From the IMG/VR virus record IMGVR_UViG_3300032007_000073, positions 8,402 through 72,401 of that record: DNA of 64,000 nucleotides; one strand, written 5' to 3'. The notes under the pieces were generated by a model that made no database searches, had not been told where the DNA came from, and saw nothing but the letters and a program-made list of their open reading frames with translations. Positions 29,651-62,529 of this stretch are shown here, piece after piece (positions within the stretch are counted from its first letter, which is position 1; every line of letters begins with the position of its first letter). This stretch comes from a virus (taxonomy: Duplodnaviria; Caudoviricetes). The position numbers were made by a program, and so were the translations under genes.

Positions 29651-29920
29651 TTACCCCCATTTAAGTTTTTTTATTCTGTCTATTGTTTCACGTGAAACAA
29701 ATCTTTTAAAGTATATGCTTGGTGGTTTTATACCTTTATCGTGTACTAATCTGTGATGCTTGGCACATAGCATAATCCCATTCTCAAGCATATACCTTGT
29801 ATTTTTGTATTTTCTTGTGTTAATCCAATGATGTGCCTCTCCGACTATACTGTTACATCCTGCAAATTGGCACGTTTTATCTCTTTCTTTAATCAATTTA
29901 GACCATTCTGCGTCTGTCAT
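29651..29920 (-). CDS. NinG-like / HNH protein
   Basis: 'WSKLIKERDKTCQ..GC...EAHH...TRY.LENG..LC..HH'. Confidence 0.7.
   Translation of the reverse strand: MTDAEWSKLIKERDKTCQFAGCNSIVGEAHHWINTRKYKNTRYMLENGIMLCAKHHRLVHDKGIKPPSIYFKRFVSRETIDRIKKLKWG
29684..29699. promoter_or_regulatory. parS: parS site, perfect 16/16 (TGTTTCACGTGAAACA)
   Basis: Exact match to the bacterial chromosomal parS palindrome; encodes 'VSRET' in 29651-29920. Confidence 0.8.
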
Positions 29921-30954
29921 AGTATATTAACCTTTTTGCATTTGCCTTGTTCTTTATCCCATTCAACCAACTCTACGGTCATTCCTTTTTGATAATCTTT
30001 TTTATCATAAGTCTTTACCATAGTTCCGTCTGTAAAAGTCAATGTCGATAATGTGTAATCTCTACCCGCATTTGTCTTGCCTGTCTTTTGCATAATATCA
30101 CTTATAACAAAGATATTGTCTGTTATATCTACTTCGGTTGCAGTATCTCCTTTAATCTCTTGTTCTACAACTTGTTCTTGTTGAGCAATAACATCGGCTT
30201 TATTCGGTTGAATTTCTTTTGGCATTTCTTTTGGTTGGTCGTAATCTATATGGACAGGTTCTTGTTGAACATCGAAATTCTTGTTGTCTATATCTTCCAT
30301 TATTGCTATCTTGGGGTCGCCTATAAATAAAGTCTTACATAATCTACGAACAACCGCCTTCTTTGCCATCTCTCCAAACCAATCATTCCATACAAAAGCA
30401 GTTTTTGCCTTACCTTTTATCTTTAATACCTCATCTTTACTCATAGTTTCAATGAATGAATACTCTTTACCTTTATCTGTGTATTGAATATAAGCATAAA
30501 CACCAACCATATCCTTGATATGTGCAAATGGATTAGCAACTTTGTGAGTATATTTTGCCTTACCATCTATTTTTTCTACGGTAAAAACATCTCCCGTATA
30601 AACCAACTCTGCCTTAACTTGTGCCGTAGGATATATTTCCTTAATCCTTGAAATAAATCCCTTAAAACCAATTTGATACTCAATCTTGCTACCATACTTA
30701 ACCACATAAGCGAGTTGCCTTTTATCAACAGGTATCCCAGTATCCAAAGAAGCCTTAAAAGCCTCTCTTATACTCTGCGGGTCTAAATTTGATAATGGTT
30801 GTTTACTTGCATCCAACATCGCTTTTGTTGCATAAGCAAACGAAATCAATTTGCTTTGCAATTCTTGTTGATTTAATCCTGTTGCTTTAATTAAAATAGG
30901 AACTTGCTCTTGTATCGCATTGTTAAAAGTTTGTACTACTAATTCTTGAGCCAT
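29917..30954 (-). CDS. recT: RecT/Red-beta family single-strand annealing protein
   Basis: 'AYVVKYG...YQIGFKGFI', 'VGVYAY', 'W.DWFGEMAKKAVVRRLCK'. Confidence 0.85.
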   Translation of the reverse strand: MAQELVVQTFNNAIQEQVPILIKATGLNQQELQSKLISFAYATKAMLDASKQPLSNLDPQSIREAFKASLDTGIPVDKRQLAYVVKYGSKIEYQIGFKGFISRIKEIYPTAQVKAELVYTGDVFTVEKIDGKAKYTHKVANPFAHIKDMVGVYAYIQYTDKGKEYSFIETMSKDEVLKIKGKAKTAFVWNDWFGEMAKKAVVRRLCKTLFIGDPKIAIMEDIDNKNFDVQQEPVHIDYDQPKEMPKEIQPNKADVIAQQEQVVEQEIKGDTATEVDITDNIFVISDIMQKTGKTNAGRDYTLSTLTFTDGTMVKTYDKKDYQKGMTVELVEWDKEQGKCKKVNIL

Positions 30955-30965
30955 AATGCCCTCCT

Positions 30966-31721
30966 TTAAATATTTTTTATTGACAATGTGTTTTCAAATG
31001 TTAATCTTCCGTTTTTCTTTTTGTAATTATATATATCTGTGAATAATTGCAAATATTCCTCCGATGTAGTACAAAGATATAGTTTTGCTTGATATTTCAT
31101 AACATTATCGATTAAAAAGTCCAAATCAAAATCTTTTATTTTTCTCAAGCATTTAACACATCTTACAATTTTATTTACAATGTTTCTTTTTCCTTTTATT
31201 ATGTAACAAAGCCTCATCATTTTTTGAACAAAATCGACACTCTCTTCAATGTCTTTTTCAAAAACCACTCTTCCTTCTTTAAAAACCTCATTTTTGTATC
31301 CACTTGCATTAAACAAACATTCTATCAATCCGTTTATACTAACACCAGTTTTGTTTTTGATTTCTAATAATCTTTGATAGTTTTTATTGCCTTGAGATGC
31401 CCAATATTGAGCATAATCTTCCAATCCCCATTTTTCTTGATATGTATTATAAATAGGAATGTTTTTTGTGTTATCCTTAAAAACGACATAATGAACAGGT
31501 ATCCCCATTCTCTTACAAGCCTCTAATCTGTGTTGCCCATCGATAATGTTAAATTCCTTATCGACAATTATCGGCTTTGACATTGACATCCCACCAGTCA
31601 ACTCAAAACTCTTCATTAATCTCTCTACGTTTTTGTTTTTTATACTTCTGTTTAATCCCACTCTTTTAAATTTTTCATAATTTTTTGTACTCGTGATAAT
31701 AGTTTTTGTGATTTTTTCCAT
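30966..31721 (-). CDS. ParB/Srx N-terminal-domain protein
   Basis: 'KPIIVDKEFNIIDGQHRLEACK.MGIPV' (GxxR motif). Confidence 0.75.
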   Translation of the reverse strand: MEKITKTIITSTKNYEKFKRVGLNRSIKNKNVERLMKSFELTGGMSMSKPIIVDKEFNIIDGQHRLEACKRMGIPVHYVVFKDNTKNIPIYNTYQEKWGLEDYAQYWASQGNKNYQRLLEIKNKTGVSINGLIECLFNASGYKNEVFKEGRVVFEKDIEESVDFVQKMMRLCYIIKGKRNIVNKIVRCVKCLRKIKDFDLDFLIDNVMKYQAKLYLCTTSEEYLQLFTDIYNYKKKNGRLTFENTLSIKNI

Positions 31722-31751
31722 TTTTTGCCCTCTCTTTTTAATTTTTATATG

Positions 31752-31780
31752 ATTATAACATATAATTTACATAAAGTCAA
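31752..31780 (-). promoter_or_regulatory. Strong sigma70 promoter TTGACT-N17-TATAAT (extended TG) for the ParB-like/RecT operon
   Basis: -35 at 31780-31775; -10 at 31757-31752. Confidence 0.75.
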
Positions 31781-31783
31781 TAT

Positions 31784-33490
31784 TTATTTTGACGGGCAGA
31801 AATATCCTTTTTTTCTTCTCTTGTTTCCAGACACATCTGCCTTGTCTTTTTTGAACTTCTTTAATTTGTTCTCTTTTCTTACTTTTGCGATTTGTTTCAT
31901 CGTAAAACTGCCGTATCTCATTTTCCCTCCTTGCCAAACAAAAAGTTTGGATTTTTATAAGTTTTTTTTATAAATTCCATATCCATTTTAATAATTTTAG
32001 CTAATCCAAGAGGTTTTATTGTTACTACCAAATCAAAATCTATTTTTCCAAAATCGTGGTATATTTGTTGTAAAATAAAAGGTCTGTTTTTAACCCAATG
32101 AAAAGCATCTATTATAAGTGTAGGTCTTTTCATAAATTTATCCTCCAATGTTTCTTGAATCTACTTAACGATTTAAAATACACCAAAGTTCTGCTCACAA
32201 AATCCCTAATTACACTCATCGATGTTTCCAATTTAAAATCGTGCAGAATTATACAGAAATTATCTTTTGCCAATATAAATCTGTATCCATTTTTAAACAA
32301 GCAACAGAAAATTTTAAAATCCCCAACTTGCCTAACAAACATTCTGTACGGAATACCATCTCCAAGTTCTTTGAACTTAGCAGGTTTTAGACATTCTTTT
32401 ACTATATCCATTTTATTCCTCCTGTGATAATAAAATTACTTCATTGTTTTGTAACTCTTTCAAAATATCCCCAATTTCTACAACTTCAATATCTTCTACC
32501 GTTTGCAGATATTTTATCGCAAGTTCTATGTTTGTAATTTCTTCTACCTCTGCATCGTTTCTTTTAACAAATCCCATATCAAGCAGTCTATCTTGGTATA
32601 AATACATCCATTTTTTGCCTTTGTCGTTTAATTTATCGTTAGCAAATCTAATAACTGCTTTTTCTGTTCCCAAAAACAAATCTTTTGTGTCTGTGTTTAT
32701 AAGTTTATATATATTTCCGTCTTTTTCTATCGCCTCAATACCATAAAAATCTTCTGCACAATAAAAACATTGATAAACATAGCCGTCTATATCACTTTTT
32801 GCCAATGGAGTTTTACAATGACGACATAAATGTTTTTCATCCAATGGATATAGTTTTACACTATACTTTTTAGTTATAGTTTCAATATCTATTTCGTGAA
32901 AATACTCTTTTATTTGACTCTCTGTCATCGGTGGCAATTCTCCACCGAATTGATTTGTGTATAATTCCAAAGTGTCTATATCTACCAAACAATATCTTGT
33001 TTCCATATTATACCTCCTTTATTCTCTTTCAAAGTTTTTCAACATCTCCAATATAGACAATCTTCTAACTAACAGATTGTAAAGTTTTCTTGTTTTTTCA
33101 AACAAAAGTCCATAATCGGCGGAGGATATATTATCTATTTCTTTTTTTGCATTTTTTATTTTGTTTTCAAGTGTTTCTTTTTTGTTTTTCAAATCATCTA
33201 TCTTTAATTTTATATTCATTTATTCACTCCGTTGTTATTTTTTTACAATTATTGTTTTCTTCCATTATTCCTTTTATAATCATCCAAGAATGAGAAATAT
33301 CAATTGCCATCGATAAAGAAAAAAATCTTATTCTATTGTGTGTTATTTGACATATCTCATAACGCCCTCTTCTAATAGATAAATATTCTTGTCCGTTATC
33401 CAAATAATGTTTTAGTATTACATATATTCCATTTTTTCTTTTTGGAAAAGCCAAAGATTTTTCTTTTAATTCTATCCAATTCATAGGCAT
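31784..33490 (-). CDS. Six small hypothetical genes (31784-31921, 31918-32148, 32130-32411, 32413-33006 with Zn finger, 33019-33219, 33224-33490)
   Basis: ORFs with RBSs; 32413-33006 has 'CRHC...CFYC'. Confidence 0.6.
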
Positions 33491-34353
33491 TATTCTCCCA
33501 TTTCCGATAATTTTCTATCAAAAGACAAAGAAAAAGCACTCTCTTGATATCCTTCAAAGCCTTTTTCTACCAAATCTGTCCTGAAACTATCATCCGTAAA
33601 ACCTTTATCAAATCTCTTTTTGATTTTATCGATAACCAAATCAGTATAAACTCTACAAACTTCAATATCTTTTTGTTCTACGGAACGAATTTCTATCCAG
33701 TTTTCCTCATCGGGTCTTGAAGATTGAATAATAAACACCATTTTTACGGGAGTTTGTCCATACAAAGACTCAATTGCTTTGCATTGCATCCCAACATCGT
33801 AAGTATAGCCACCTACATCGATACCTCTAATATTTTTTTCTATTGTTGCCGTAGTTTTGTACTCAATTAAAACAATCCCTTGTGGAGTATTTTTTACGGC
33901 ATCCAATTTTGCTTTTAAAACCAAACCTCTATCTTCCCAAATCACAGGTTTTTCAATTGAAATCCCACTTAAAATAGTTTTTACCAAGTCATAACTCAAT
34001 AAAGTTTTTATCCTTAAATACCAATTATCGAACTCACTTTGTAAAACCAAGTCTTTTCCACTTTTTTCATTGGCTATCGCATCTTGGAAGGCTTTTGTTT
34101 TACGAGAACTAAAACCTTTGCCATCAGGAATAATTTTGTACTCATCGTGAAATTTGTTAGGTTCTAACAATAAAGTATGAGCCAATCTCCCATTTACCAA
34201 AGCATCTGTTACTCCCTCATCAATCCTATTAGGATTGAAAAGGCAGTTTTTCCAAAACCACATCGGATTTTGGTCATTCCATTTTTTAATTTGACTTTTG
34301 CTTAATCCTTTGTAAGCAAAATAGTCTTTGTCGCTTAGTCTTTGCATAAGCAT
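33490..34353 (-). CDS. RecE/exonuclease VIII-like PD-(D/E)XK nuclease (DUF3799-type)
   Basis: 'GLSKSQIK', 'GRLAHTLLLEP', 'KAKLDAV...IEYKTT', 'Y..GMQ'; functional partner of RecT. Confidence 0.8.
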   Translation of the reverse strand: MLMQRLSDKDYFAYKGLSKSQIKKWNDQNPMWFWKNCLFNPNRIDEGVTDALVNGRLAHTLLLEPNKFHDEYKIIPDGKGFSSRKTKAFQDAIANEKSGKDLVLQSEFDNWYLRIKTLLSYDLVKTILSGISIEKPVIWEDRGLVLKAKLDAVKNTPQGIVLIEYKTTATIEKNIRGIDVGGYTYDVGMQCKAIESLYGQTPVKMVFIIQSSRPDEENWIEIRSVEQKDIEVCRVYTDLVIDKIKKRFDKGFTDDSFRTDLVEKGFEGYQESAFSLSFDRKLSEMGE

Positions 34354-34620
34354 CTACCTCCTTTTTAAATTTCTTTTTGTTAATTTTCTTGCAATCTTTA
34401 CACATCTACGAATTTGCTCTCTTGTTTGCTCTCTATTTAACAAATAAGTATCTTTTGTTACTATCAGTTTTTCTTTGTAGAAAAATCTAATCTCAAGCAT
34501 AAACACAATTTTTATTGTTATAATATCGTTTATAAGATACATATATTTTCCGCATTTGCGATATTCAAAACCTTTAAATCTTTTTAAATAGTTTTCCATA
34601 ATATCATATTCATATCTCAT
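34354..34620 (-). CDS. Hypothetical protein
   Basis: 88 aa ORF with an AGGAGG RBS. Confidence 0.55.
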   Translation of the reverse strand: MRYEYDIMENYLKRFKGFEYRKCGKYMYLINDIITIKIVFMLEIRFFYKEKLIVTKDTYLLNREQTREQIRRCVKIARKLTKRNLKRR

Positions 34621-34680
34621 ATAGTCCTCCTTTTAATAGATTTTAATGAATAGCTCCATATAGGAGCTATCCCTTAAAAG

Positions 34681-35382
34681 CTACCTCCAATTTAAAATAT
34701 TTTTCTGCGGTTTATATGTTTGTGTTATTTTATCCCATTCCATCCAAGCTTGTTGTTCGTTATCCCAATATCCACCATACCAATATGAATAAGATACTGG
34801 CTCAGGTTTTTGATAACTTGTATTACTATACCATATTCCGTTATCCCAAACACCTGCTTTTTCGTTTATGATTTTATATTTTCCGTTTTTGTTTAACAAA
34901 ATCATTTTATTTGACGAACCAATATATCCTTCAATTAATTGAAACAGAACATCGTTTTTTCCTTCTATCATATCATTGAGGCAACTTTTTGCTATTCTTT
35001 GAAGGATTTTTTTATTAAACATCATAGTGTCGCTATCGTTAGAAGTTTTAGAAACTCCGTAATCGTGTCTCAAAATTCCGTTATGACAAAACACTATCTC
35101 GTCATTTACAACAAACGGATGAGTACATCTTTTAGATATTAGCCCGTGAGTTGCTATTCTAAAATGTACCAAAAACGGCTTATCTATATACTTGTCTCTT
35201 GTTTCAATAAAATTATCAATATTTTTGATAATTTTCTTTTTATTTGATTCTTTTACCATTTTTATTTGATTGTTTTCATCAAAATAAGCATATCCAAATC
35301 CGTCCCTGTTCGTTTCGTTACATCTAATTAAAGTATCTCTATCTAAAACTTTGCCTTCTGGCAATAATATTGCTATGCACAT
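34681..35382 (-). CDS. Class II glutamine amidotransferase (Ntn hydrolase)
   Basis: N-terminal M-C; 'NRDGFG', 'HFRIATHG', 'THPF', 'HNGIL', 'SDT'. Confidence 0.9.
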   Translation of the reverse strand: MCIAILLPEGKVLDRDTLIRCNETNRDGFGYAYFDENNQIKMVKESNKKKIIKNIDNFIETRDKYIDKPFLVHFRIATHGLISKRCTHPFVVNDEIVFCHNGILRHDYGVSKTSNDSDTMMFNKKILQRIAKSCLNDMIEGKNDVLFQLIEGYIGSSNKMILLNKNGKYKIINEKAGVWDNGIWYSNTSYQKPEPVSYSYWYGGYWDNEQQAWMEWDKITQTYKPQKNILNWR

Positions 35383-37070
35383 ATTGTTTTTACCTCCTTT
35401 AAATATTTTACCTTCATTTCATAGAATTTTATCAATTGTTTTAATATCTTACTATGAGCATTTTGTTTTAAATACTCAAACATCTCTTTTGCATTTAAAG
35501 ACTCTTCGTTTTCTTTATCTCTTGAATATTCAACTAACAATTTACAGAATTGAATATGAGCAAATATAACATCGGTTCTCAAAGTTCCGTTAAACATTCT
35601 TATTTCTATCGTTTTGGCGTGTTTAAAGTTTACGATGTGATATTTATCTCCAAAAACACCGGCATTATTCAATCCATTAATGAAATAATTTTTATCTCTT
35701 GCTATACCATAATCAAACTGAGCATAATGATTAAAACTTCTACAAGCAAAATGTTCGGTTAAATATTTATCCAAATAAAAACATCTTGCAAATCTTGCAA
35801 TATGATAATTATCCTTAAAACCTGCTCTACTTAAATGAATATGGAGACCTGTTGTTGTTGCTTCATCACTGTATCCACCCCCATTAATTACACTTTGAAA
35901 AGTTCTTTTGAAATCGCATAGTGCCAAATACCATCTTTTATACGTCATTGCATAAGATACGACTTCAAATCCATTACTTATACTACTATCTGATTTTAAA
36001 TAAACAAATTGTTTTAACGATTTATTTATCTTTTTTGCACATTCTTCTATACTACTATCCATATCTACTTCCATTTCTATTTCTGCGCCATAGAACATTT
36101 TTTCGTTTACATCGTCTGTTCTTGCTCTTAAAAATCTCTCAATTTTTGTTGAATAAGGATTAATTCTTGTCAATTTACACTCAGAGCAAAGAGTATCCTC
36201 TTCATCTTCTCTAACATAATAACAATCGCATTTATAACAACATCTAATTGTTTCTGGAAGTTCCGAATTAATAACATTCATCTCATCTTTATACAAATTC
36301 AATTCTTTTTGAACTGCTTTTTTATCTTTCTCGCAAGAAAATTTTAATCTAACTCTAAATCCCATCTTGCCAGTCAAATCACATTTTCCGTAATTTTTTT
36401 CTATCAAACAATCATCGCAATAAGTTCCATCGTTTACTTCTGTAATATTAAATGTCGGTTGTTGATAACAAATTACTTCCGTCCTTCCACAACAATTACA
36501 ATATCTCCTATATTTTTTATTAAAATTTGTCTCCCACCACTCTATCACTTTATCTTCAAACTCAGGTCTATAAAACCATCCTGAGAAATCCTCAATCGTA
36601 CAATTCGGCATAGCTCTCTTTGTCTTTTTAACAAAATCATAAACTATCGTATCTTCTAATCCTGTAATTCTTATACAATAAAACAATCTTCCAAAAATTT
36701 TCTCCATTTCTGCATAATCTACATCAAATTTTTTGATTGTTTTAAGGTATTTTCTCATCTTAGAAACCCTTATCAAAAACGGCAAGTTTCTACTTCTTCT
36801 ACAATCGCTCAATCTACTAATGCCGTACACAGGAGAAAAACTATCCTTTTCCTGCTCCACATTGAACGATTTTAAAGACCTTGCAGAAAAATTAATACTT
36901 GAGATAACCGAATCTCCTTCTCTTTTATCCCATCTTGTGTTTTTAATCCATCCTTCTACATTCAAATCTGCCTCTTGCAGACTTCTTGACAACTTGTACG
37001 CCTCATCTTTTGCGATTTCATAATAAGAATCGCACGTCTTTGACCTATGGAGTTTGTTCATTATATCCAT
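35373..37070 (-). CDS. Amidoligase (COOH-NH2 ligase type 2) with N-terminal Cys-rich zinc ribbons
   Basis: 'YGAEIEME', 'KSDSSI..GFEVVS', 'TGLHIH', 'TIEIRMFNGT'; adjacent to the GATase. Confidence 0.85.
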   Translation of the reverse strand: MDIMNKLHRSKTCDSYYEIAKDEAYKLSRSLQEADLNVEGWIKNTRWDKREGDSVISSINFSARSLKSFNVEQEKDSFSPVYGISRLSDCRRSRNLPFLIRVSKMRKYLKTIKKFDVDYAEMEKIFGRLFYCIRITGLEDTIVYDFVKKTKRAMPNCTIEDFSGWFYRPEFEDKVIEWWETNFNKKYRRYCNCCGRTEVICYQQPTFNITEVNDGTYCDDCLIEKNYGKCDLTGKMGFRVRLKFSCEKDKKAVQKELNLYKDEMNVINSELPETIRCCYKCDCYYVREDEEDTLCSECKLTRINPYSTKIERFLRARTDDVNEKMFYGAEIEMEVDMDSSIEECAKKINKSLKQFVYLKSDSSISNGFEVVSYAMTYKRWYLALCDFKRTFQSVINGGGYSDEATTTGLHIHLSRAGFKDNYHIARFARCFYLDKYLTEHFACRSFNHYAQFDYGIARDKNYFINGLNNAGVFGDKYHIVNFKHAKTIEIRMFNGTLRTDVIFAHIQFCKLLVEYSRDKENEESLNAKEMFEYLKQNAHSKILKQLIKFYEMKVKYLKEVKTICA

Positions 37071-37102
37071 ATAGCCCTCCTTGTTTTAAGTCCAGTGGAC
37101 TG

Positions 37103-38972
37103 TTTAGTACTCAATAAGCCCCTGATATCTCTATCAGGGATATACAAAATACTAAAATCCAAAACTTTTAATATATTTTTTAGCATTGCATAAATTTTTA
37201 CAAACTTCATTTGCAAGAGCTTTAGTTATAAACATCGTTTGTTTGGAATGAATAGACGTATCGTAATATCTCTTTTTTTCTTTTTTATCGTAAAATTCCA
37301 ATTGAATTTCATATAGTATCTCAACTCCTCCCTTTTTTAAATTTATACAAAAATCCACCACTTTACCTTCAACTACTTCAAAAGCATCTCCAATAAGAGC
37401 CCTTCTAACACAAAACACTCTTTGTCCGATTTCATAATCGGTTTTAATTGTGATTTCCATAATATCCTCCTTTATAATGTTTAATTAGACCCCGATATCT
37501 CTATCGGGGCTAAACAAAACATTACAACTCAGCAAGTTTTTCAACTAATTTCTCTCTCTCCAAAGTGAGTCTGTCAACTATCACTTTCCTTGCCTTCTCA
37601 GTTGTTTTTGGATAAGATTTTAAAGTAACACCTATCGAATCAAACGTAAGATTCTTGGCAGACTCAATCATCTTATCCTTCCTATCAATTTTTTCCAACA
37701 ACGTCAATACTTCATTTCTGTTAGATAACTTCATAGCTATCCCCCTTTTATTTTATTTCTGCCTTAAAGGCAGTTTTTTATAAAAATATCCTTTTACATA
37801 TTTCATATCAAAATAACTTGCTATAGCAAAACAATCTGCCAATGTAGGATGATGAGATATCGTATTGATTATCTCCCATCGTTCATAATGGTTGCCTTTG
37901 AAATCAACTACTTCGGTCATTATCGCATCCCATTCTTGATTTAACACTTTTACTGCTTGTTCAAATAAAAGCATATTAAACCTCCTTTAGTGTTTAATAA
38001 GGTCCTGATATCGCTATCAGGACTATACAAAGCACTAATATTTAATATTATCACAGGCTTGTTTGAATTGTTCTTCTGTTATACAATCGGGCAAATACTC
38101 TTTAATATCTTTTATTTCATAAAATCCGCTGCAACAGTCTATTGTCTCTCCATAGTTATCATAAACTTCAAATCCGTAAAAGTCTCCATCTGAGCATTTT
38201 TGCCAAACTTTCAAAAACTTTTTAAACACTTCGTATCCAAAATGAACATCTTTACTATGATGTTTTATTGCAATAATTCCAGCAATTCCCGAATCCCAAC
38301 GGTCTCTTAAAGCTCCTGAATATTCATATAGCCAAATCCCGCTATGTATCGTTGCCTCACAATAAAACAACTGATATCCATTTGCTAATAACTCTTCTTT
38401 GTCAAAGTAATCTGCGTTTTCTACTTCATAATTTTTGCATAAGGTATAATCTTTCAAACAATTTAAAATCTTAACATCGTCAATTTCATCTCTATCAAAC
38501 ACAAGATTAATTTCATCTTCATAATCTACAAAATCATACCTGAAAATTCTCAAATAATACTTTCTTTCTACCAAAGAATTAGCAAAGTTTAAAATCTTAT
38601 CATACTGCTCCGGACTTAAATCTTTAATAGTTAAATCCATAATAATCCTCCTTTTTAAAGTCCATAAGGACTGTTTTAATATTTAATCCTATCTCCAATA
38701 AAGAGACAGGACAAAACATTAAATTTTGTTTTCAATTATAAATCCCATAATATTATTGAGTATTTCTAATTTCCCATTATTTCTTGCCGTATCTCTCAAA
38801 TACTCCAAATCCCCAATAATTTCCTTTTTTTTCTTCTCTTCTATCATATCTGACTCTTTTCTTGTCTCTTCTCCAAGTTTTAACACAAATTCTTTTAGTG
38901 TCATATTAAACCTCCTTTATTAGTATTTAATCAAACTCCCTGATTATCTCAGGGAGCTAAACAAAATACTAA
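37103..38972 (-). repeat. Dispersed intergenic hairpin repeat, five copies (37103-37156, 37475-37524, 37987-38038, 38675-38723, 38920-38972); divergent relative at 34641-34679
   Basis: Each copy is a ~50-nt imperfect inverted repeat starting at the upstream stop codon and ending just upstream of an AGGAGG RBS. Three share the core CC(C/T)GATAG(A/C)GATATC(A/G)GG. Confidence 0.85.
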
Positions 38973-40538: not shown

Positions 40539-40691
40539 TTATTAAAAAGTTATTATTTTTATAGTACATTCATAATCAAAAACAATTGTTGACTTTAAGT
40601 AAAGTTGCTTTGTTTTTAGAATGTTTTTTATGTCAAATAGCTTTTGCTTTAAAGGTCGGTTCTTTAAAGACTGTTTATTTTTTCTATTATT

Positions 40692-40847
40692 AGTATAATA
40701 TATATTTAATTATATATCAAGTATTTTAATTAGATTTTACATTTTTTTTGCAATTTGTATTATATATAGTATTATATTATATTTGTATTATAAATATTCA
40801 ATTTTATATACAAAATACTTGACTTTTTAGTTAAAATTTGCTATAAA
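40692..40847. promoter_or_regulatory. Divergent sigma70 promoters: minus TTGATA-N17-TATACT (40720-40692); plus TTGACT-N17-TATAAA with TG (40819-40847)
   Basis: Spacings counted directly. Confidence 0.6.
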
Positions 40848-41053
40848 AAAAGCATTCTTTTTTTTGGCAAGGAGGTAAGCACTTCCACCAATTTTCTCAC
40901 AAAAAACCGATATTTTGCTTGGCTACCAATGTTATAATTTGATTTATAGGTATTTATAGGCGATATTTTGAGATATTTTGGGTTTTATGAATAAAAGGTC
41001 AACTTTGCTATAAAAAAGAGTAAATAGGTGGTATAGGGATAAAAAATTTTGAG

Positions 41054-41090
41054 AAAAAAAAATAATATATGTCTGAATACTCAGCATATT
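41054..41090 (-). terminator. Intrinsic terminator of the candidate sRNA and of the terminase operon
   Basis: AUAUG-CUGA-GUAU-UCAG-A-CAUAU stem followed by a run of U. Confidence 0.65.
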
Positions 41091-41213
41091 TTAAGATTGG
41101 TTAGAGATGACATATCTTCCGTTCGGCTTAGCATATAGCCAGTACTTGCAACATTAGATACATTACTACGGTAGGAGTTATCGGCTTACCATAAAGGCAG
41201 TCTGCAAGTTCCT
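41054..41213 (-). ncRNA. Candidate ~160-nt stand-alone small RNA
   Basis: Own TTGACA-N17-TACAAT promoter, no credible ORF, internal stems, ends in a hairpin plus U9. Confidence 0.55.
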
Positions 41214-41219
41214 GAGATA

Positions 41220-41248
41220 ATTGTAATATATTTGGAATCGGATGTCAA
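41220..41248 (-). promoter_or_regulatory. Sigma70 promoter TTGACA-N17-TACAAT
   Basis: -35 at 41248-41243; -10 at 41225-41220. Confidence 0.75.
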
Positions 41249-41250
41249 GA

Positions 41251-41637
41251 TTAAAGAGTACCGTTTTCGATAGCTTCAAAGACAATAGGAAGCACCTTAT
41301 CTTTAGTTCTTAGGTTTAAAGGGAACGTTTTTTTAAATCCTTTAGGTCTTTTAACGAGATAAACGGAAGCACGTCCGTCAAGAGTCCTTCTGTCAGGAAG
41401 TATAGACAGGATAAAGTTCACAAGGTCGTCTTGCTCTTTTTTGTACCCTCTGACACAACAAACACAATAATCGTCCTTGTTGAACTTTGGTTGAGGCTTT
41501 TTGAGGTACTCTTCCAAGATAGGCTTAAGATGTTCCGGTAATTTGTAAGTAGTTCTTGCGGCATAATACTCTCTTGGTCTGCGTTTGAAAGTATTTTTTG
41601 GCATATAGTAAGGGTCTTTGTACGGAGATACAGGCAT
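41251..41637 (-). CDS. Hypothetical basic protein downstream of TerL
   Basis: 128 aa; start overlaps the TerL stop. Confidence 0.6.
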   Translation of the reverse strand: MPVSPYKDPYYMPKNTFKRRPREYYAARTTYKLPEHLKPILEEYLKKPQPKFNKDDYCVCCVRGYKKEQDDLVNFILSILPDRRTLDGRASVYLVKRPKGFKKTFPLNLRTKDKVLPIVFEAIENGTL

Positions 41638-43091
41638 TATATAACCTCCAATAAACTTGGGATATGTTTGTAAATGAGTTTTGCACCATCTACGATACAG
41701 TCAACCATATCATCGTGCCTACCATCAGGGAACTCGATACATTCAGAGATACAATCTTGAATTATTGATTGGTTCATATCGCAATTAAATGTTACTTTAT
41801 AATTATACACATCGGGAAGAACCACGTTTGCTCTTATTACTTTATCTCTCTTACGGTCTTTATAGAACTCTTTTAATACTCCTTCCGATTGAGTGATTAT
41901 CCCTTCCTGTGCAAAAAATTGGTTTAAAAAGATTCCGTGTCCTTTCGGTTCAATATAACATCCGATAAAATCTTCTCTGATAGACCACAACTTCATAAAA
42001 GGTAAGAAATATTCCACTATCTTGTCCGAATTTACTTTCGCCCTCTTTATGTCTAACACATAGAACCGCCCGTTAGCCTTTCCTACCGCCATAAAGACTG
42101 TCCAATCGTTTCTTTCTGAACCTCTGTATGCAGTATCTGCTATTACGGCAGTAAAATCAAAATATTCAGGTAATGCATCTATTTGGAACATATCTTTCGT
42201 AAACAACGAGCCTCCTGTTGCTCTTGGCTCTTGCTGGTACTGCGAATAATATAACTCAGGTGTCCTTATTTTAAGTTCTTCTAACTTTTTTATCGGAAAC
42301 TTCTCTTCCCAAAACGATACCTTCTTCTCTTCATCATATGCTCTTACCGTAACCACATCCCAATCATTTGTCTCGGCATCCATTACATATTGAGCTAAAT
42401 CGTTTGTTGATAATCTCTGCATTATAAGAATTATCGGAGTATGACTCGTTCTTAATCTTGTCTTGAGCTTGTCCGTATAATTCCTGATACATTCGTTTAA
42501 CATTACTTCAGAAGTCGCATTTGATACGTCCAATGGGTCATCGATAATTAAATCTCCATTGTATCCTGGTATTGACGGATTACCTGCATCAATACCTGTC
42601 AATGCACTTCCTATCGGAGCAGCCGTCATTCCACTTCTTGTTCCTGCATCCTTGAAATTGTATTGTGTACTTGATTTTTGGTCTAACTCGTGTCCAAACA
42701 AGTCTTGCCAAAATATCGATTCGATTATCTCTAACGTTTCTCTTGATAACTTCGTTATGAGCAAATCGGAATGTGATACATATAAATGCTTAACACTCGG
42801 ATTTCTTGCAAATGTCCAAGTAATGAATAACTCCACTATTAACGATTTTCCCGCTCCTACAGGTATGTTTATAAGTAAGTTCGGTTTATCGTTCTTTTGG
42901 TCTGCTATATCCTGTAACTTTTGGATAATCTTATCGTGAAAAGGCTTGAATGTGAACTCAGTCCTGTTTATCAGGAAGAACATCAGGGTTATGTACTCCC
43001 TCAGACTCCCCAGACACGTCAACCTCAACAACTCTTTCGTCTCCGGGTCTTTCATCGCCTCTTCCAATTGGGATATTTTGTCTAAGTCCAT
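41637..43091 (-). CDS. terL: Terminase large subunit
   Basis: Walker A 'NIPVGAGKS', Walker B 'LIIDDPL', 'IILIMQRL', 'SQYQQEP', RNase H-like 'IADTAY...DWTV' and 'HDDMVD'. Confidence 0.93.
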   Translation of the reverse strand: MDLDKISQLEEAMKDPETKELLRLTCLGSLREYITLMFFLINRTEFTFKPFHDKIIQKLQDIADQKNDKPNLLINIPVGAGKSLIVELFITWTFARNPSVKHLYVSHSDLLITKLSRETLEIIESIFWQDLFGHELDQKSSTQYNFKDAGTRSGMTAAPIGSALTGIDAGNPSIPGYNGDLIIDDPLDVSNATSEVMLNECIRNYTDKLKTRLRTSHTPIILIMQRLSTNDLAQYVMDAETNDWDVVTVRAYDEEKKVSFWEEKFPIKKLEELKIRTPELYYSQYQQEPRATGGSLFTKDMFQIDALPEYFDFTAVIADTAYRGSERNDWTVFMAVGKANGRFYVLDIKRAKVNSDKIVEYFLPFMKLWSIREDFIGCYIEPKGHGIFLNQFFAQEGIITQSEGVLKEFYKDRKRDKVIRANVVLPDVYNYKVTFNCDMNQSIIQDCISECIEFPDGRHDDMVDCIVDGAKLIYKHIPSLLEVI

Positions 43092-43686
43092 CTGTTATAC
43101 TTGCTCTCCTTAATCCATCCAAGATTTCTTTTACTTTGTTTACTTTATCTTTATCTATATTTACATCTATAATCTTCTGTTGTATTCCTGTACTTATAAT
43201 CTCGTTGGCAGGTTTCTCTCCTACCGTATCTCTTATTATCTCAAGTCCTCTTAACTGATTCGCAGTTATGTCTCCTGATAATACCCCGTTAACTATCATC
43301 TCTGCCAATAACATACGTTTGGACTTAACTTTCTCTTGTCCGTCTTTTACATCTACTATTCCGGGTGTATCTAAAATTTCATTAAAACAATCTTTAAATA
43401 TTTCTTTTACCATTTTCTTGGTTACCAAAGGCAACTTCTGTGCCCTGTATATCCCTTTTCTTAAATCATCATCCTCTTTTATATAATCCCAAATTAATTG
43501 GTCTATTTCAAAAATCTTAAATCCTACTTGCCCGTCTTTAAGCTCTTTTATCTTCTGATATTTCGGTTTATACTTGGCTTTTATTTTCTCTGCAAACTCT
43601 CTTACATCCTCTTTTATTGCCTCGTATAACACTTTTTCCGACATATAATCTTTGGTAACTTCGCCCTTACCTCTAAATACTGTCAT
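42958..43686 (-). CDS. Terminase small subunit (putative)
   Basis: Immediately upstream of TerL; 'LEIIRDTVGEKP' motif; its C-terminus overlaps TerL by 134 nt. Confidence 0.6.
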   Translation of the reverse strand: MTVFRGKGEVTKDYMSEKVLYEAIKEDVREFAEKIKAKYKPKYQKIKELKDGQVGFKIFEIDQLIWDYIKEDDDLRKGIYRAQKLPLVTKKMVKEIFKDCFNEILDTPGIVDVKDGQEKVKSKRMLLAEMIVNGVLSGDITANQLRGLEIIRDTVGEKPANEIISTGIQQKIIDVNIDKDKVNKVKEILDGLRRASITDGLRQNIPIGRGDERPGDERVVEVDVSGESEGVHNPDVLPDKQD

Positions 43687-44027
43687 AATAAGTATAAGTG
43701 CCTATCAAACATTTCTAAAATATCTATAACTACATTTGCTTCCGTGTCTTTTACCGACAATGCAAGTAACGTAAACTCTCTCTTTGCCATAGACAAATAC
43801 TCTTTTATCTCGGTATCAGGAAGTTCTACTCCCTTGAACTTCGCATAATCTACCTGCGTAATCCCTCTTGACCCCATATATACCTCAACAAATCTGTCTA
43901 ACAACGGGTCTATATCTCCCATCAATCTCTCAAAAAGAATATGGTTCGCATACTCTTTCGCCGTGTTCCAATGCAAAAACTGAAGTTTATCTTTATATGT
44001 CTTTAATATGGCTATGTATTTCTCCAT
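43683..44027 (-). CDS. Ferritin/Dps-like four-helix protein (DUF5856-like)
   Basis: 'LQFLHWNT...NH..FE.L...ID..LD.FVE.YMG' metal-ligand pattern. Confidence 0.7.
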   Translation of the reverse strand: MEKYIAILKTYKDKLQFLHWNTAKEYANHILFERLMGDIDPLLDRFVEVYMGSRGITQVDYAKFKGVELPDTEIKEYLSMAKREFTLLALSVKDTEANVVIDILEMFDRHLYLL

Positions 44028-44209
44028 TTTTCCCCCTCGTGCTTCTTTATAAATGTATCTATATTGTTAATCGTTAAACAGACGGCTTTGGCTTTCCTTA
44101 ACCCCATTGTCAATAACGGATATCTCTTGTTATCGCCTGTCGCCTCATCGTCATATAACGAAATTATTGGTCTGCCTTTAAATGTGCTTTCTTCTATCCT
44201 GATTTTCAT
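44012..44209 (-). CDS. Small conserved phage hypothetical protein
   Basis: 'FKGRPIISL...MGLRKAKAV'. Confidence 0.6.
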   Translation of the reverse strand: MKIRIEESTFKGRPIISLYDDEATGDNKRYPLLTMGLRKAKAVCLTINNIDTFIKKHEGEKWRNT

Positions 44210-44226
44210 TTCCCCTCCGTAGTATA

Positions 44227-44297
44227 TATATAATACATTAAGAAAAAAATGTCAAGCAAAAAAAAGACTTGACAAAATAAAAAATATAATGTATTAT
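44227..44297. promoter_or_regulatory. Back-to-back sigma70 promoters: minus TTGACA-N17-TATATA (44255-44227); plus TTGACA-N17-TATTAT (44269-44297)
   Basis: Inverted TGTCAAG...CTTGACA pair at the strand switch between the terminase and head operons. Confidence 0.7.
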
Positions 44298-44303
44298 TCA
44301 TAA

Positions 44304-44465
44304 TGTAGTTGAGATAATAAGTTTATCCGAAAAACTTTTTATCTCGTTGAAAATTAAAACATAGACAATTAAAGACATTTTGTAGTGTTCCTGTCTGTTA
44401 TTATATTTTGTCTATGGATATAAGAAACAGGTCGGAACAGGAATACTACAAAGTGTCTTTTTTTT
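44304..44465 (+). ncRNA. Candidate ~160-nt leader/attenuator RNA upstream of the head genes
   Basis: Hairpin 44311-44345; 24-bp stem 44371-94/44437-60 followed by a U-tract; loop complement at 44360-68. Confidence 0.5.
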
Positions 44466-44843
44466 GTTTAACCGTTTTTAGAGTCTTTTTTTTTAAAAAA
44501 AACCAAAAGCCGAATGATAGCAACAAGAATCTGCAAAAGTTTTATGTTTTGTAATTGCGATTACTTCTGACAACAGTGATAAGTATGAAAAATACGGAAG
44601 CAAATCCTACAAAATATGAAATTTCCTGTCATAATCAGAAAAGGTATCTGTTTTGTAAACCTTTTAAAGAGTTGCGTAGAAATACGGATAAGAAAGACAT
44701 AAACAGATAAAAGATTTGATATCTTCTAAATGTTCGGGTTGTTTTAAAAGACAACTCTTATCCCCCCCCCTATTAAAAAAAGTACTTGACATTTTTTAAA
44801 ATATTTGCTATTAGTTGGATATAAAAAGATAGAGATAGGGGAG

Positions 44844-46427
44844 ATGACAAAGAAAAATAAAACCAAATCAATGTTTTCGGACGGATACCAAGAAGGATTT
44901 GAAGCCGCATTAAAAGAAAATTCCTTATCGTCTTTTGTCGGCTCTATTTCAGGATTTAACGGTGGTTGGGAAGGTGCCGCTTTAATCGCAAGAGGAGTTC
45001 AAGCCTCACAAGTAGATACACTCGCAAAAAATAATCGTAATTATTTTATATCAAATTTCAGATACTTACTTTCTGAATCTTATGTTGAACACGGTCTCAT
45101 ACAAACAATGGTAGATTTGCCGGTAGATGATGCATTTAGGTCGGAAATTGAGTTCAAAACCACAGAATTAACCAAAGACGAACAACTTAAAATCAAAGAA
45201 TTTATGGAAGATAAGGACTTTGTTGAAAAGTTCAAATATTCTATTAAATGGGCAAGACTTTTTGGTGGTGGTGCTTTGATTATAATGACAGGCGAAGATG
45301 ATTTGTCTGTTCCTATGGATATGACAAAATTAAAAGGTATGCCTGTAGAGTTTGTTCCTGTAGATTTGTGGGAACTTTATTATGGAGATTATGATGTAAA
45401 CGACCAACAACTCGATTATTTTAGAGATGTTGAGTTGAGAAAACTTCTTTATAGACCTGAAGTTTATAATTATTACGGAGAAAGGATACATAAATCAAGA
45501 ATTTTCAGAGTTGAAGGAAAAGAAGCTCCTTCTTTTGTAAGACCTCGTCTTAGAGGTTGGGGATTTTCTGTTCTTGAAACTCTTGTAAGAGGCTTTAATC
45601 AGTATTTAAAAGGTGTAGATTCTACTTTCGAAATGCTTGACGAAGTTAAAGTAGATGTGTATTCGATAAACAATTTTGCAACTGCATTAATGAGTAAGAA
45701 CGGAGAAGCCAATGTTAGAAGAAGAATTATGTTGGCAAACCAATTAAAATCTTACTTAAATGCTCTTGTTTTAGATAAAAACGATGATTATCAATCAAAA
45801 AGTCATAGTTCTTCTTTCTCAGGATTAGCAGAAGTAATGAAAGAAATTCGTTATCAGATAGCTTCTGACCTTCGTATGCCTTTATCAAAATTGTTTGGTA
45901 TAGGTAGCTCAGGATTTAGTTCAGGAGAAGATGATATTAAGAACTATAATACAATGGTTGAAACAGAGATAAGAAGTAAAGTTAAAAATAATTTAAAGAA
46001 CTTATACAAATTGTTCTGTTTGTTTGTTTTAGGTAAAGAGATACATAATGTTGATGTAGTTTTTGGTTCATTGGATTATGAAACTCCGAAAGATTTGAGT
46101 ATTCGTAAAAACTCTGAGTTCCAAAGAGCTATAATAGCTTATAACAAAGGTTTTGTTAATGTTTCTCAAGTAAAAGAAATGTTTAATAAAAACAATATGT
46201 TGCCTATTACAATAGACGTTAATGATAATCTTTACAATACTTTACCTTTGGAAATGGCAAAAAAACAAGGACAAGAAGATGACGAGACAGATATAAGTAC
46301 TAAAGACTTAAAAACTCGTACATTTACAAGCGAATCTGAAAGAGCAAAAAGAAAACAAGAACTTTTAGCAGAGTTGGAAGAGATAGAAAAAGAAGAATTA
46401 AAGGATAAACAAAATGTTCAAAATTAA
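44844..46427 (+). CDS. Portal protein (DUF1073 family)
   Basis: Likely ATG 44844. 'LIQTMVDLPVDDAFR', 'WARLFGGGA', 'RIHKSRI', 'WGFSVLE', 'RMPLSKLFG.GSSGFSSGEDD..NY'. Confidence 0.88.
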   Translation: MTKKNKTKSMFSDGYQEGFEAALKENSLSSFVGSISGFNGGWEGAALIARGVQASQVDTLAKNNRNYFISNFRYLLSESYVEHGLIQTMVDLPVDDAFRSEIEFKTTELTKDEQLKIKEFMEDKDFVEKFKYSIKWARLFGGGALIIMTGEDDLSVPMDMTKLKGMPVEFVPVDLWELYYGDYDVNDQQLDYFRDVELRKLLYRPEVYNYYGERIHKSRIFRVEGKEAPSFVRPRLRGWGFSVLETLVRGFNQYLKGVDSTFEMLDEVKVDVYSINNFATALMSKNGEANVRRRIMLANQLKSYLNALVLDKNDDYQSKSHSSSFSGLAEVMKEIRYQIASDLRMPLSKLFGIGSSGFSSGEDDIKNYNTMVETEIRSKVKNNLKNLYKLFCLFVLGKEIHNVDVVFGSLDYETPKDLSIRKNSEFQRAIIAYNKGFVNVSQVKEMFNKNNMLPITIDVNDNLYNTLPLEMAKKQGQEDDETDISTKDLKTRTFTSESERAKRKQELLAELEEIEKEELKDKQNVQN

Positions 46428-47367
46428 AACGGCAGAAGTTTTCTATGCAAGACACATAACTCACGGAATATCGAGATATAAAGCAGGTAATGTTTTGATA
46501 ACTAAACCCGTTTTAGATAAAATGAATGATTCGTTTAGTGGAAAACCTGTTGTTATAACTCATAAAGATTGGGAAAAACAAGAACCTGTTGGATATGTTG
46601 TAAAATCGTTCTATTTGCCGCAAGATGGCTATTTTTGGGTAGAATTTATTGTAAGCAATAAACAAGCCTTAGAGTTCATAAAGAACCAAAATTTTAGGGT
46701 TTCCAACGGTTATTTGACAACTGCTTCAGGAGTTGGTGGAAAGTTTCACGATATTGAGTATGTTGAAGAAGTTTTGGATGGAGAGTATGTACATTTGGCA
46801 TTGACAAAAGAACCAAAATTCGATGAAGCGATAATAATGAATACAGAAGATTTTAAGAAATTCAAAAAAGATTTAGAGAAAATAGATAATAAATTTAACG
46901 AGAAGGAGGATAAGATGGGATTTAATTTGTTTAAGAAACAAAAAGTAGAAAATTCAGAAGAAATTTTAAATACATCTTTTGAATTAGGTGGAAAATCATA
47001 TACCGTAAAGGATATGATAGGAATGTTATCCGAAAAACTTAACGAAGGCGAAAAAAAGTATGCAACTTGTAATGGAGAGTTTACGGCAGAAGAGTTGGTT
47101 GGAAAATACAACGATGCTTGTGCAACGATAAAGAAAAATGAAGAAGAAAAGAAAGCAGAGGAAGAAAAGAAAAAAGAAGCAGAGAAAAAAGCAGAAGAAG
47201 AAAAGAAACAAGCCGAAGAAGAAGCTAAAAAGAAAGAAGAAGAAGAAAAGAAAAAACAAAATGAAAAACTTAACTCAAGAATGAATGTAAACGAACCGAA
47301 AGGCGAAGTGAAACACATAGTTTTTCAAGCAACAAAAGATGGAAGAATACAAATAATTGAAGAATAA
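46414..47367 (+). CDS. Head maturation protease/scaffold (DUF2213-like)
   Basis: 'SFSGKPVVITH', 'SNGY', 'HLALTKEPK'; K/E-rich scaffold-like C-terminus. Confidence 0.75.
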   Translation: MFKIKTAEVFYARHITHGISRYKAGNVLITKPVLDKMNDSFSGKPVVITHKDWEKQEPVGYVVKSFYLPQDGYFWVEFIVSNKQALEFIKNQNFRVSNGYLTTASGVGGKFHDIEYVEEVLDGEYVHLALTKEPKFDEAIIMNTEDFKKFKKDLEKIDNKFNEKEDKMGFNLFKKQKVENSEEILNTSFELGGKSYTVKDMIGMLSEKLNEGEKKYATCNGEFTAEELVGKYNDACATIKKNEEEKKAEEEKKKEAEKKAEEEKKQAEEEAKKKEEEEKKKQNEKLNSRMNVNEPKGEVKHIVFQATKDGRIQIIEE

Positions 47368-47379
47368 GGAGATTAAAAA

Positions 47380-47823
47380 ATGACTCAAACATTAAACCAG
47401 TTTAAGACGGAAGTAGTAGCAGGTCAGATAGCATTAGATGCAGTTGAAGGTAAAGCGATAAATGTAATGATTAGTGAAGATTATGCAGGAACAGGAGTTA
47501 AAAACGGAGATGCAGTTTCTTTGGTTGCAACTTCTAAAGCTCCTTTCATAACCGTAGCTCCTAAAACAACAGGTGCAATTGCTGGTGTTGTTGCATTTAA
47601 CGCAGTAAAAAATAAATATGGTGCAAAAGATTTATGTACGATATTTATTAACGGAAAATTCATCTATGCTAATGTAGGCGAAGCAGTAGAAGCAGGAGAT
47701 GAACTTACTTGGGATTCTTCAACAATGAAATTTGTTAAAAAAACAGACGGAACTGTTGATGCAATCGCATTGGACAAAGCAGCAGCAGGATTAACAAGAA
47801 TCGTAGTAAAAGGTATATTTTAA
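47380..47823 (+). CDS. Capsid decoration/cement protein
   Basis: 147 aa, beta-rich, immediately upstream of the major capsid gene. Confidence 0.65.
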   Translation: MTQTLNQFKTEVVAGQIALDAVEGKAINVMISEDYAGTGVKNGDAVSLVATSKAPFITVAPKTTGAIAGVVAFNAVKNKYGAKDLCTIFINGKFIYANVGEAVEAGDELTWDSSTMKFVKKTDGTVDAIALDKAAAGLTRIVVKGIF

Positions 47824-47839
47824 TAAAGGAGAGATATAA

Positions 47840-48916
47840 ATGAAACTTACAAAAGAACAAATCTTAAGTGGAGAATTTAAGGACGTATATGGTAATGTTG
47901 TAAAGTTGAATGAAGCTGAAATTTTAATGGCAAAACAGTCTCAACAGGCTTTAGATTTGGCATTAAAAGTAAATGCTGCACAAACAGGTCTTGGAGCAGA
48001 AATGGATATAACAACTTTAACAGTTTTGTTAAAAACCATTTCTCAACAGAAATTCTATCAAGTAAATCTTGAAGATTATTTGCCTGAAGAAATAGATGGT
48101 GGTTGGGCAAAACAATTGCTCCAAGTGAGAGAGTACTTGACATCTGATATCGATGAAGGATGGCAAGAAAACAATGTTGCTCAAGCTAAGATACCTGTTG
48201 CAGAAGCAGTTGTTGACGGAAGATACATTCCGGTTGTAACTTGGTTGAAAAAGATTCAATTCACAATCGAAGAATTGAAACAAGCAGCATTGATAAACAA
48301 CTACTCTTTGATAGCAGGTAAAGAAAGAAGTAGAAAAAAATCTTTCGATTTGGGATTACAGAAAATTGCTTTCTTGGGTAACAAAATCGTTAAAGGTCTT
48401 TTGAACCAAGACGATGTTACAATCGATACGACTACAATACCTAAATCATTGAAAGAAATGAGCTTCAATGAAATCAACGTATTTGTAGCAGATGTAATCG
48501 AAAAATACAGAGCAAATTGTAACAGAACTGAGTATCCGAATGTATTTATGATTCCTGAATCAGATTACAACGGATTGGCATCTCAAGTTTCTCCTCAATT
48601 CCCTGTAAAGAACAAATTGATGTTGATTAAAGAAGCCTTTGATACAATAGCAAGAAAACCTGTTGCAATTCTTCCTTGTGTATATTCTGACGAAGGATAT
48701 AACAACTTAGGATTGACCAGATATGCTTTGTATAACAAAGATATCGACTCTATCAAACTTGTAAAAGCAATTGATTATACTCCTACAATGTTCAATAACA
48801 TTGATGGATGGAACTTAGTTAATACAGCTTTCGCAAGGGTTGGTGGTGTATTCGTAAACAGACCACAAGAAGTATTGTATTTTGACAGAACCGAAGAAAG
48901 CTCGAGTTCTATATAA
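47840..48916 (+). CDS. Major capsid protein (DUF2184 / HK97 fold)
   Basis: 358 aa; 'FTIEELKQA', 'QKIAFLGN...GLLNQ', 'ARVGGVFVNRP' motifs; highly biased codon usage. Confidence 0.88.
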   Translation: MKLTKEQILSGEFKDVYGNVVKLNEAEILMAKQSQQALDLALKVNAAQTGLGAEMDITTLTVLLKTISQQKFYQVNLEDYLPEEIDGGWAKQLLQVREYLTSDIDEGWQENNVAQAKIPVAEAVVDGRYIPVVTWLKKIQFTIEELKQAALINNYSLIAGKERSRKKSFDLGLQKIAFLGNKIVKGLLNQDDVTIDTTTIPKSLKEMSFNEINVFVADVIEKYRANCNRTEYPNVFMIPESDYNGLASQVSPQFPVKNKLMLIKEAFDTIARKPVAILPCVYSDEGYNNLGLTRYALYNKDIDSIKLVKAIDYTPTMFNNIDGWNLVNTAFARVGGVFVNRPQEVLYFDRTEESSSSI

Positions 48917-48930
48917 TCTCTTAAGAGAAC

Positions 48931-48965
48931 AGTAAGGGAGGGAGATGCCCTCCCCCTCCCTTACT
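48931..48965 (+). terminator. GC-rich hairpin after the major capsid gene
   Basis: AGTAAGGGAG/CTCCCTTACT stem; weak U-tract. Confidence 0.55.
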
Positions 48966-48978
48966 TATTGGAGAAGAT

Positions 48979-49224
48979 ATGAAAATTTTAAATACAAGTT
49001 CGGCAAATTTTATAGTTAAGGATAAAAGAGGAAATACTGTAATCTTAGAACCTAATATGACGGTAGAAATTACCGAACAAGTAGGCAAAAAGGTTACAAG
49101 ATATCCTTTTATAAAAGTATTGCAAGAACCGAAAAAAGAGACTAAAATTGAAGTAAAAGAAGAAGTTAAAGAAGAAAAAGTAGAAGAAGTTTCACGTGAA
49201 ACAAAGAAGAAAAGGAAAAAATAA
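48979..49224 (+). CDS. Small head-associated protein
   Basis: 81 aa with a K/E-rich tail containing VSRET. Confidence 0.6.
   Translation: MKILNTSSANFIVKDKRGNTVILEPNMTVEITEQVGKKVTRYPFIKVLQEPKKETKIEVKEEVKEEKVEEVSRETKKKRKK
49188..49203. promoter_or_regulatory. parS: parS site, 15/16 (AGTTTCACGTGAAACA)
   Basis: One mismatch, at the outer base; encodes VSRET. Confidence 0.7.
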
Positions 49225-62517: not shown

Positions 62518-62529
62518 AGGGGGTGGCTT

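Follow-up and report, generated by a model that had tools for sequence, protein, structure and literature searches.

Two sites that match the bacterial chromosomal centromere sequence parS lie inside genes of a tailed phage, in a 64,000-nucleotide stretch of viral DNA (Duplodnaviria; Caudoviricetes) that covers positions 8,402 to 72,401 of the IMG/VR record IMGVR_UViG_3300032007_000073. This whole 64-kb stretch is referred to below as the window, and coordinates are window positions unless another genome is named. Judging by sample names, which indicate rumen metagenomes, the phage is an uncultured rumen virus, and it is apparently a lytic myovirus. The two sites exist, they exceed chance, they are selected as DNA, and the phage that carries them is without partition genes. 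On balance, we think that they probably act as functional host-type binding sites for the partition protein ParB and would serve the positioning or inheritance of the phage DNA.

The window was scanned for the universal chromosomal-type parS consensus, TGTTNCACGTGAAACA. Site 1, TGTTTCACGTGAAACA at 29684-29699, matches all 16 positions with 0 mismatches, and site 2, AGTTTCACGTGAAACA at 49188-49203, matches 15 of 16 with its single mismatch at the outermost base; the consensus scored is the universal one, from which that of the host may differ. Both sites are 16-bp palindromes within one or two mismatches of TGTTNCACGTGAAACA, and the variants seen in relatives also stay within the consensus. The sites lie 19.5 kb apart, and the 14-bp core of the universal parS is matched exactly at both positions. 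This consensus is used across phyla, including Bacteroidota, and ParB recruits SMC proteins at parS (PMC10197239). With as many as three mismatches allowed, the window yielded no further parS, nor was any found in the other 8.4 kb of the 72.4-kb record.

Markov models of order 0 to 2 predict about 1e-3 sites with at most one mismatch per genome. Under these models the probability of two or more such sites is 1.5e-7 to 7.5e-7, or approximately 3e-7; a mean of 0.44 obtained by shuffling counts sites with up to three mismatches and is not applicable to matches this close. Two parS sites in this phage are far beyond chance. An initial annotation of this DNA had placed the two 16-mers in unrelated genes, both reading VSRET, had named them the conserved bacterial parS and had considered two such near-perfect matches very unlikely to arise at random. 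Its description of the sites is correct, its estimate of their improbability is borne out by the Markov models, and the match to the universal chromosomal consensus, inside coding sequence, supports the identity that it gave them.

Both sites encode the peptide V-S-R-E-T. Only two of the three frames of the palindrome are open, the third containing a TGA, so the shared VSRET frame is unremarkable and was dropped as evidence. The choice of codons is more informative. CGT accounts for 6% of the Arg codons in the phage and is used for the Arg of VSRET at both sites, and, once the peptide is fixed, the parS choice of codons has a probability of 0.0025 at each site.

Site 2 falls in the Lys/Glu-rich C-terminal tail of an 81-residue protein for which no Pfam or PHROG match was found. 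Homologues of this protein (P0003-P0006) are 41-60% identical, and their tails vary in length and sequence except for the motif and a terminal KKKRKK. The string A GTT TCA CGT GAA ACA is unchanged in the related loci L012 and L013/L014. In L016 only base 16 differs, where A to C leaves the peptide unaltered, and the sole change in the two closest relatives of the phage, G001 and G002, is a T to C at the N position of the consensus, which replaces Ser by Pro. Measured against the consensus, the substitutions seen at site 2 are those that parS tolerates, at the N position or silent at base 16. Across five lineages, 14 of the 16 motif columns are invariant, compared with 79 of 188 (42%) in the rest of the gene (Fisher test, P = 4e-4). 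Third codon positions are invariant at 5 of 6 in the motif versus 16 of 62 in the rest of the gene, so that the synonymous-site constraint for which the initial annotation had proposed to look in relatives is indeed found. Judging by these counts, it is the DNA sequence of site 2 that is under constraint in the five diverged lineages. The locus L015 (5500-5748), whose capsid protein is the closest to that of the window, has lost the core of site 2 through a 6-nucleotide in-frame deletion and one substitution. Because the core was lost by an in-frame deletion, the VSRET peptide is dispensable for the 81-residue protein. The L015 allele is a putative natural null allele of site 2.

Site 1 lies in an HNH-endonuclease-like gene that follows the gene for a RecT-like annealing protein in every relative that has the HNH-like gene; in G001, no HNH-like gene is present after RecT. 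Among the HNH orthologues, only the window phage and L136/L137 have the sequence TTT GTT TCA CGT GAA ACA. The orthologues L138-L142 read an ITQER-type peptide, with 7-8 of 15 nucleotides and 4-5 of 5 residues changed at the motif and a divergence of ~20% in the rest of the gene. The window phage and L136 differ at 0 of 15 nucleotides of the motif and at 53 of 249 (21%) elsewhere in the HNH-like gene. As these alignments read, site 1 is present in few lineages and is held intact there, with change concentrated on the motif. Because the ITQER type is widespread, the comparison favours a gain of site 1 over a loss, on a tree that is unrooted.

The two sites belong to the same phage genome. Window positions 16121-16506 are repeated at 63612-64000, a spacing of ~47,494 bp, and the complete genomes G001 and G002 measure 47.5 and 46.5 kb. 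Both parS sites fall within the ~47.5-kb myovirus part so delimited, and the 72.4-kb record as a whole looks like a chimeric or alternative assembly. The ~47.5-kb part encodes a portal, a capsid, a sheath-type tail and a large terminase, a RecT/exonuclease pair, RusA, an O/DnaD-like replication initiator and two DNA methyltransferases, as well as an M15_3 endolysin that adjoins a spanin-like open reading frame (ORF). Searches of the phage, G001 and G002 for ParA (CbiA, AAA_31), for ParB_N and HTH_ParB, and for Phage_integrase, Resolvase, HTH_3 and Peptidase_S24 gave no match and were positive in control genomes; the lack of ParA reported in the initial annotation is confirmed by the CbiA and AAA_31 searches. 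Since integrase, repressor, ParA and ParB matches are missing and the controls were positive, the phage looks virulent and without partition genes, absence of matches not being proof of virulence. No lysogeny or plasmid-maintenance genes and no tRNA genes were found in the phage. For both site regions, no similar DNA was found among 50,697 phage records. When bacterial genomes were scanned twice, with profiles of the capsid protein and of RecT, no prophage relatives came to light, and a profile scan of viral contigs revealed no additional relatives.

A separate parS-like sequence, TGTTTCACAAGAAACA, which matches at 14 of 16 positions, occurs at G001 28743-28758 and G002 5905-5920 (L010, L009), in the orthologue of window 19891-20568. 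It has no counterpart in the window, and we regard it as probably incidental.

Because the parS sites are real and constrained, and the phage is without ParA or a canonical ParB, exploitation of the host ParB is the most economical reading. Host ParB dimers would nucleate at both sites after injection, close as clamps bound to cytidine triphosphate (CTP) and spread along the adjacent phage DNA. The unintegrated phage genome would thereby be tied to the ParA-driven segregation and positioning machinery of the host. The likeliest gain would be that the phage DNA travels with the host origins into daughter cells during delayed lysis, as in a carrier state or in starved hosts. We infer both the binding of host ParB and the resulting gain from the sequence match and from the precedent of phage phi29. 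The initial annotation had also proposed a hijack of the host ParABS/SMC system. We retain the use of host ParB as the likeliest reading, with phi29 as experimental precedent, and regard the roles of SMC and of an episome as conjectural; the suggestion that a ParB-N protein of the phage could modulate the clamp is not supported, for reasons given below.

In 2005, Meijer and colleagues reportedly described parS sites of the host type in two virulent Bacillus phages, phi29 and Nf, together with Spo0J-dependent segregation of the phage DNA into the prespore (summarised in PMC2731898). As a control, phi29 was scanned with the same pattern. Four exact TGTTCCACGTGAAACA sites were found versus 0.1 expected. 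Three are intragenic (10445 in gp10, 15903 in gp15, 18760 in gp17), and the fourth, at 17243, closely follows gp16. Five parS sites for the host Spo0J have been reported in the virulent phi29, and Spo0J helps to move its genome into the prespore (PMC2731898). Like phi29, the present phage has host-type parS above chance, scattered and in coding sequence, and shows no match to a lysogeny module, to ParA or to a canonical ParB, with the caveat that it has a divergent ParB/Srx-fold accessory protein. Unlike phi29, which is a 19-kb protein-primed podovirus with five sites, it is a 47.5-kb contractile-tail phage with a lambda-like recombination/replication module and one or two sites. Its host is probably diderm and non-sporulating, Spo0A boxes are not at issue, and the case is known from sequence alone. 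In view of this precedent, we consider the finding less novel than the initial annotation assumed; it extends the phi29-type class of orphan parS and is not a new principle. Apart from the phi29 papers, the literature found on phage parS mostly concerns engineered ParB-GFP reporters.

Clues to the type of host come from the lysis genes and from the closest relatives in culture. Spanin-like ORFs and the lysis region were observed at 17610-17964 and 18301-18747 on the + strand. A 116-residue ORF has an N-terminal signal/lipobox-like sequence and a C-terminal membrane helix, and a 99-residue ORF with a membrane helix and a coiled coil overlaps it in another frame. The endolysin is a single-domain M15_3 peptidase with homologues in phages of Gram-negative bacteria. 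Among cultured phages, the nearest capsid protein, with 39% identity, is the major head protein of Bdellovibrio phage phi1422, a phage in which no parS was found. The M15_3 endolysin, the spanin-like ORF and the nearest cultured relatives suggest that the host is diderm. Since it looks diderm, the host is probably non-sporulating.

Several points weigh against the segregation of phage DNA by host ParB. With a host that is probably non-sporulating, the spore-entry rationale of phi29 does not transfer, and the gain here must differ from spore entry; no signs of a carrier or episomal lifestyle were found in the phage. The site 2 motif is lost in L015, a close relative, and site 1 is missing from G001 and G002, so neither site is indispensable. 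The KKKRKK tail that flanks site 2 is conserved too, and part of the conservation of site 2 may act on the protein. Finally, the statistical tests are individually modest (P from 4e-4 to 0.03), and they draw on lineages that lack full independence of one another.

The same DNA evidence would also suit a host ParB that binds the sites with a gain in lytic growth, through titration of ParB or the loading of SMC on phage DNA. Replication would yield hundreds of copies of the sites, which would soak up ParB and dismantle the partition complexes of the host; alternatively, host SMC would be loaded to organise or untangle the replicating phage genomes, and the recruitment of SMC by ParB at parS is established (PMC10197239). 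The lifestyle of the phage looks purely lytic, as expected for such a gain, and lysogeny or maintenance genes were not found. One or two sites per genome are few for a sponge, however, and phi29, the sole studied precedent, uses its sites for segregation. We hold a gain in lytic growth to be fairly unlikely, while recognising that the sequence in itself does not separate it from segregation.

Selection on a DNA motif would suit any sequence-specific binder, and the palindrome could instead be an operator for a phage-encoded protein, either the product of the gene at 30966-31721 or a small helix-turn-helix (HTH) protein, several HTH proteins being encoded nearby. The match to parS would then be coincidence or mimicry. 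The initial annotation had pointed out a ParB-N (GxxR) gene 1.3 kb from site 1, and 30966-31721 does lie 1.27 kb from this site and encodes the DGQHR motif. Its product has no Pfam ParB_N or HTH_ParB match. The AlphaFold2 model of the protein (predicted local distance difference test score, pLDDT, 92) resembles the N-terminal and helical domains of ParB/Noc; in Foldseek it matched Noc, ParB, pNOB8 ParB-N and KorB best, with alignments that span the two domains but have low TM-scores. The protein family has >6,000 cluster representatives.

The ParB/Srx-fold gene, however, is not distributed like the sites. G001 and G002 both keep site 2 and lack the gene. Site 1 is present in L136, where the gene upstream of RecT encodes a protein whose end differs from that of the ParB/Srx-fold protein, and it is apparently not the same gene. 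No parS lies within 4 kb of a 52% homologue. Given this distribution, the gene cannot explain the sites generally. Complete relatives retain site 2 without it, and for this reason we rejected its product as a general binder; on the same observations, the proposed modulation of a ParB clamp is not supported, although in this one phage the protein may have a role at the sites. The gene is a variable accessory gene that probably lies outside the parS feature. For any unrelated operator, moreover, the exact 14-bp core of parS at two independent positions would be an odd coincidence, and neither site is in a promoter region. An operator for a phage-encoded binder thus seems improbable to us. In the P0022 contig, the ParB/Srx-fold gene upstream of RecT was seen as two 123-residue ORFs, and it may be frameshifted or decaying there.

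Very improbable, in our estimate, is that the sites have no function as DNA, with VSRET kept for the sake of the proteins and the match to parS due to shared ancestry and codon bias: where residues agree, the codons of these phages are the same at a baseline of 0.6-0.78 in any case, the adjacent KKKRKK is conserved and both carrier proteins are small and uncharacterised, but the two carriers are unrelated and both use the rare CGT (P = 0.0025 each), Pro is tolerated in place of Ser at the degenerate position of parS, deletion of the peptide is tolerated, ITQER stands in its place in most HNH orthologues, third positions show stronger constraint than those elsewhere in the gene, and the chance of two near-perfect parS is ~3e-7. 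The counts at site 1 and site 2, the CGT codons, the Ser-to-Pro change and the in-frame deletion all point to the DNA, and not the encoded protein, as the target of selection.

Other roles for the palindrome were considered and discarded. A packaging (pac) site is unlikely, as the sites lie 6 kb and 12 kb from the gene for the large terminase, TerL, and the site in G001 lies ~9.7 kb from the terminal repeat. An RNA hairpin or terminator does not suit a loopless perfect palindrome that would form at best a 5-bp stem, and a terminator-like GC hairpin lies upstream of the 81-residue gene. The arrangement of the half-sites does not match the usual CRP, FNR, Rex and LexA types of box.

If host ParB binds these sites and segregates the phage DNA, the arrangement would differ from both chromosomal and self-encoded partition systems. 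Chromosomal parS clusters near oriC, where ParB/Spo0J spreads as a CTP clamp and loads SMC. The sites of the phage have the same 16-bp palindrome as chromosomal ParABS centromeres, and chromosomal sites are often intragenic too. Unlike chromosomal ParABS, the phage shows no cluster at an origin and no parAB operon, and the virus encodes neither protein. Since the sites are on a virus, 19.5 kb apart, and parAB was not found, they are parS-type sites and not a chromosomal centromere locus. A single parS is said to suffice to stabilise a plasmid via host proteins, as Lin and Grossman reported in 1998. The phages P1 (ParAB-parS) and N15 (SopAB) encode their own ParA and ParB, have their own centromeres and persist as stable plasmid prophages, and the N15 sites are dispersed palindromes among phage genes. 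The present phage resembles them in having centromere sites on phage DNA, but its own ParA and ParB, a centromere of its own and a plasmid-prophage state were not found. It has no self-encoded ParABS cassette of the P1 or N15 type, and in relatives the occurrence of its ParB-fold gene does not track that of the sites.

Table 1. The two parS sites, the genes that carry them and the adjacent genes, in window coordinates.
Feature	Coordinates	Strand	Remarks
HNH-endonuclease-like gene, 89 aa	29651..29920	-	PHROG HNH E ~2e-5, weak Pfam HNH_2; codons 75-79 = site 1
parS site 1	29684..29699	.	16/16 consensus match; identical 16-mer in L136/L137
RecT-like annealing protein gene	29917..30954	-	Pfam RecT E = 9e-24; phrog_148 E = 1e-33
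ParB/Srx-fold protein gene, 251 aa	30966..31721	-	phrog_12305 E = 2e-29; DGQHR (GxxR) motif
Major capsid protein gene	47840..48916	+	relatives have precomputed Pfam Major_capside (PF09950) match
81-aa gene, function unassigned	48979..49224	+	directly after major capsid gene; codons 70-74 = site 2
parS site 2	49188..49203	.	15/16 consensus match; kept in G001, G002, L012, L013/L014, L016

Further features were observed in the window. A GC-rich hairpin at ~48930-48965, between the capsid gene and the 81-residue gene, is kept at the same position in L005 and L006, and its stem differs at several positions from the stem in G001/G002; it probably serves as a terminator or attenuator behind the capsid gene. 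On the - strand, two orphan genes for N6/N4 DNA methyltransferases lie side by side (26270-27001 and 27171-27905) and probably protect against restriction. In the early region, at 34681-37070 on the - strand, an amidoligase-like gene of 565 residues adjoins a class-II glutamine-amidotransferase-like gene of 233 residues. This pair, which is kept in the P0022 contig, may act on DNA or nucleotides. Regarding the assembly, 15452-16506 and 62452-64000 contain repeats that are 88-94% identical, and a ~47.5-kb myovirus circle (~16.5k-64k) seems to be joined to a second virion module via a shared tail-fibre end and a chaperone gene.

Sites of this kind may not be confined to the present phage. At least 119 IMG/VR contigs (L017-L135) contain the exact parS 16-mer, versus 2 that contain a reversed palindrome with identical base composition, a count that host DNA within viral contigs may inflate and that is a lead and not a result. 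At least 26 of these loci have 2-5 copies of parS. Among the 69 parS-bearing records checked, 2 have a ParB_N match and 67 do not, and 14 of the 15 parS-bearing records that are at least 90% complete are without a ParB_N match. Some of the multi-site contigs are phi29-like (L080, L029, L086), and L076, which has an SU10-type portal and five sites, represents a different kind of phage. It is a tentative possibility, which we would not yet call probable, that orphan host-type parS is widespread and has evolved repeatedly across phage lineages and hosts, including non-sporulating diderms. As part of this possibility, a second site may be visible here as it arose within a gene through clustered substitutions.

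The present case adds evolutionary evidence to the phi29 precedent, in the form of synonymous constraint at site 2 and of a lineage-confined, intact site 1 in an HNH-like gene. The two 16-mers, together with the natural knock-out alleles in relatives, are simple reagents with which the proposal can be tested. If host ParB loads at these sites, the strategy of phi29 would reach beyond spore-formers and small podoviruses. It would then point to a wider, little-studied interface between lytic phages and chromosome segregation, with possible roles in carrier states, in persistence in slow-growing gut or rumen hosts and in host takeover. If orphan parS proves to be widespread, it would represent a general way to plug phage DNA into the ParB/ParA/SMC machinery of the host, and not a peculiarity of phi29 tied to the spore.

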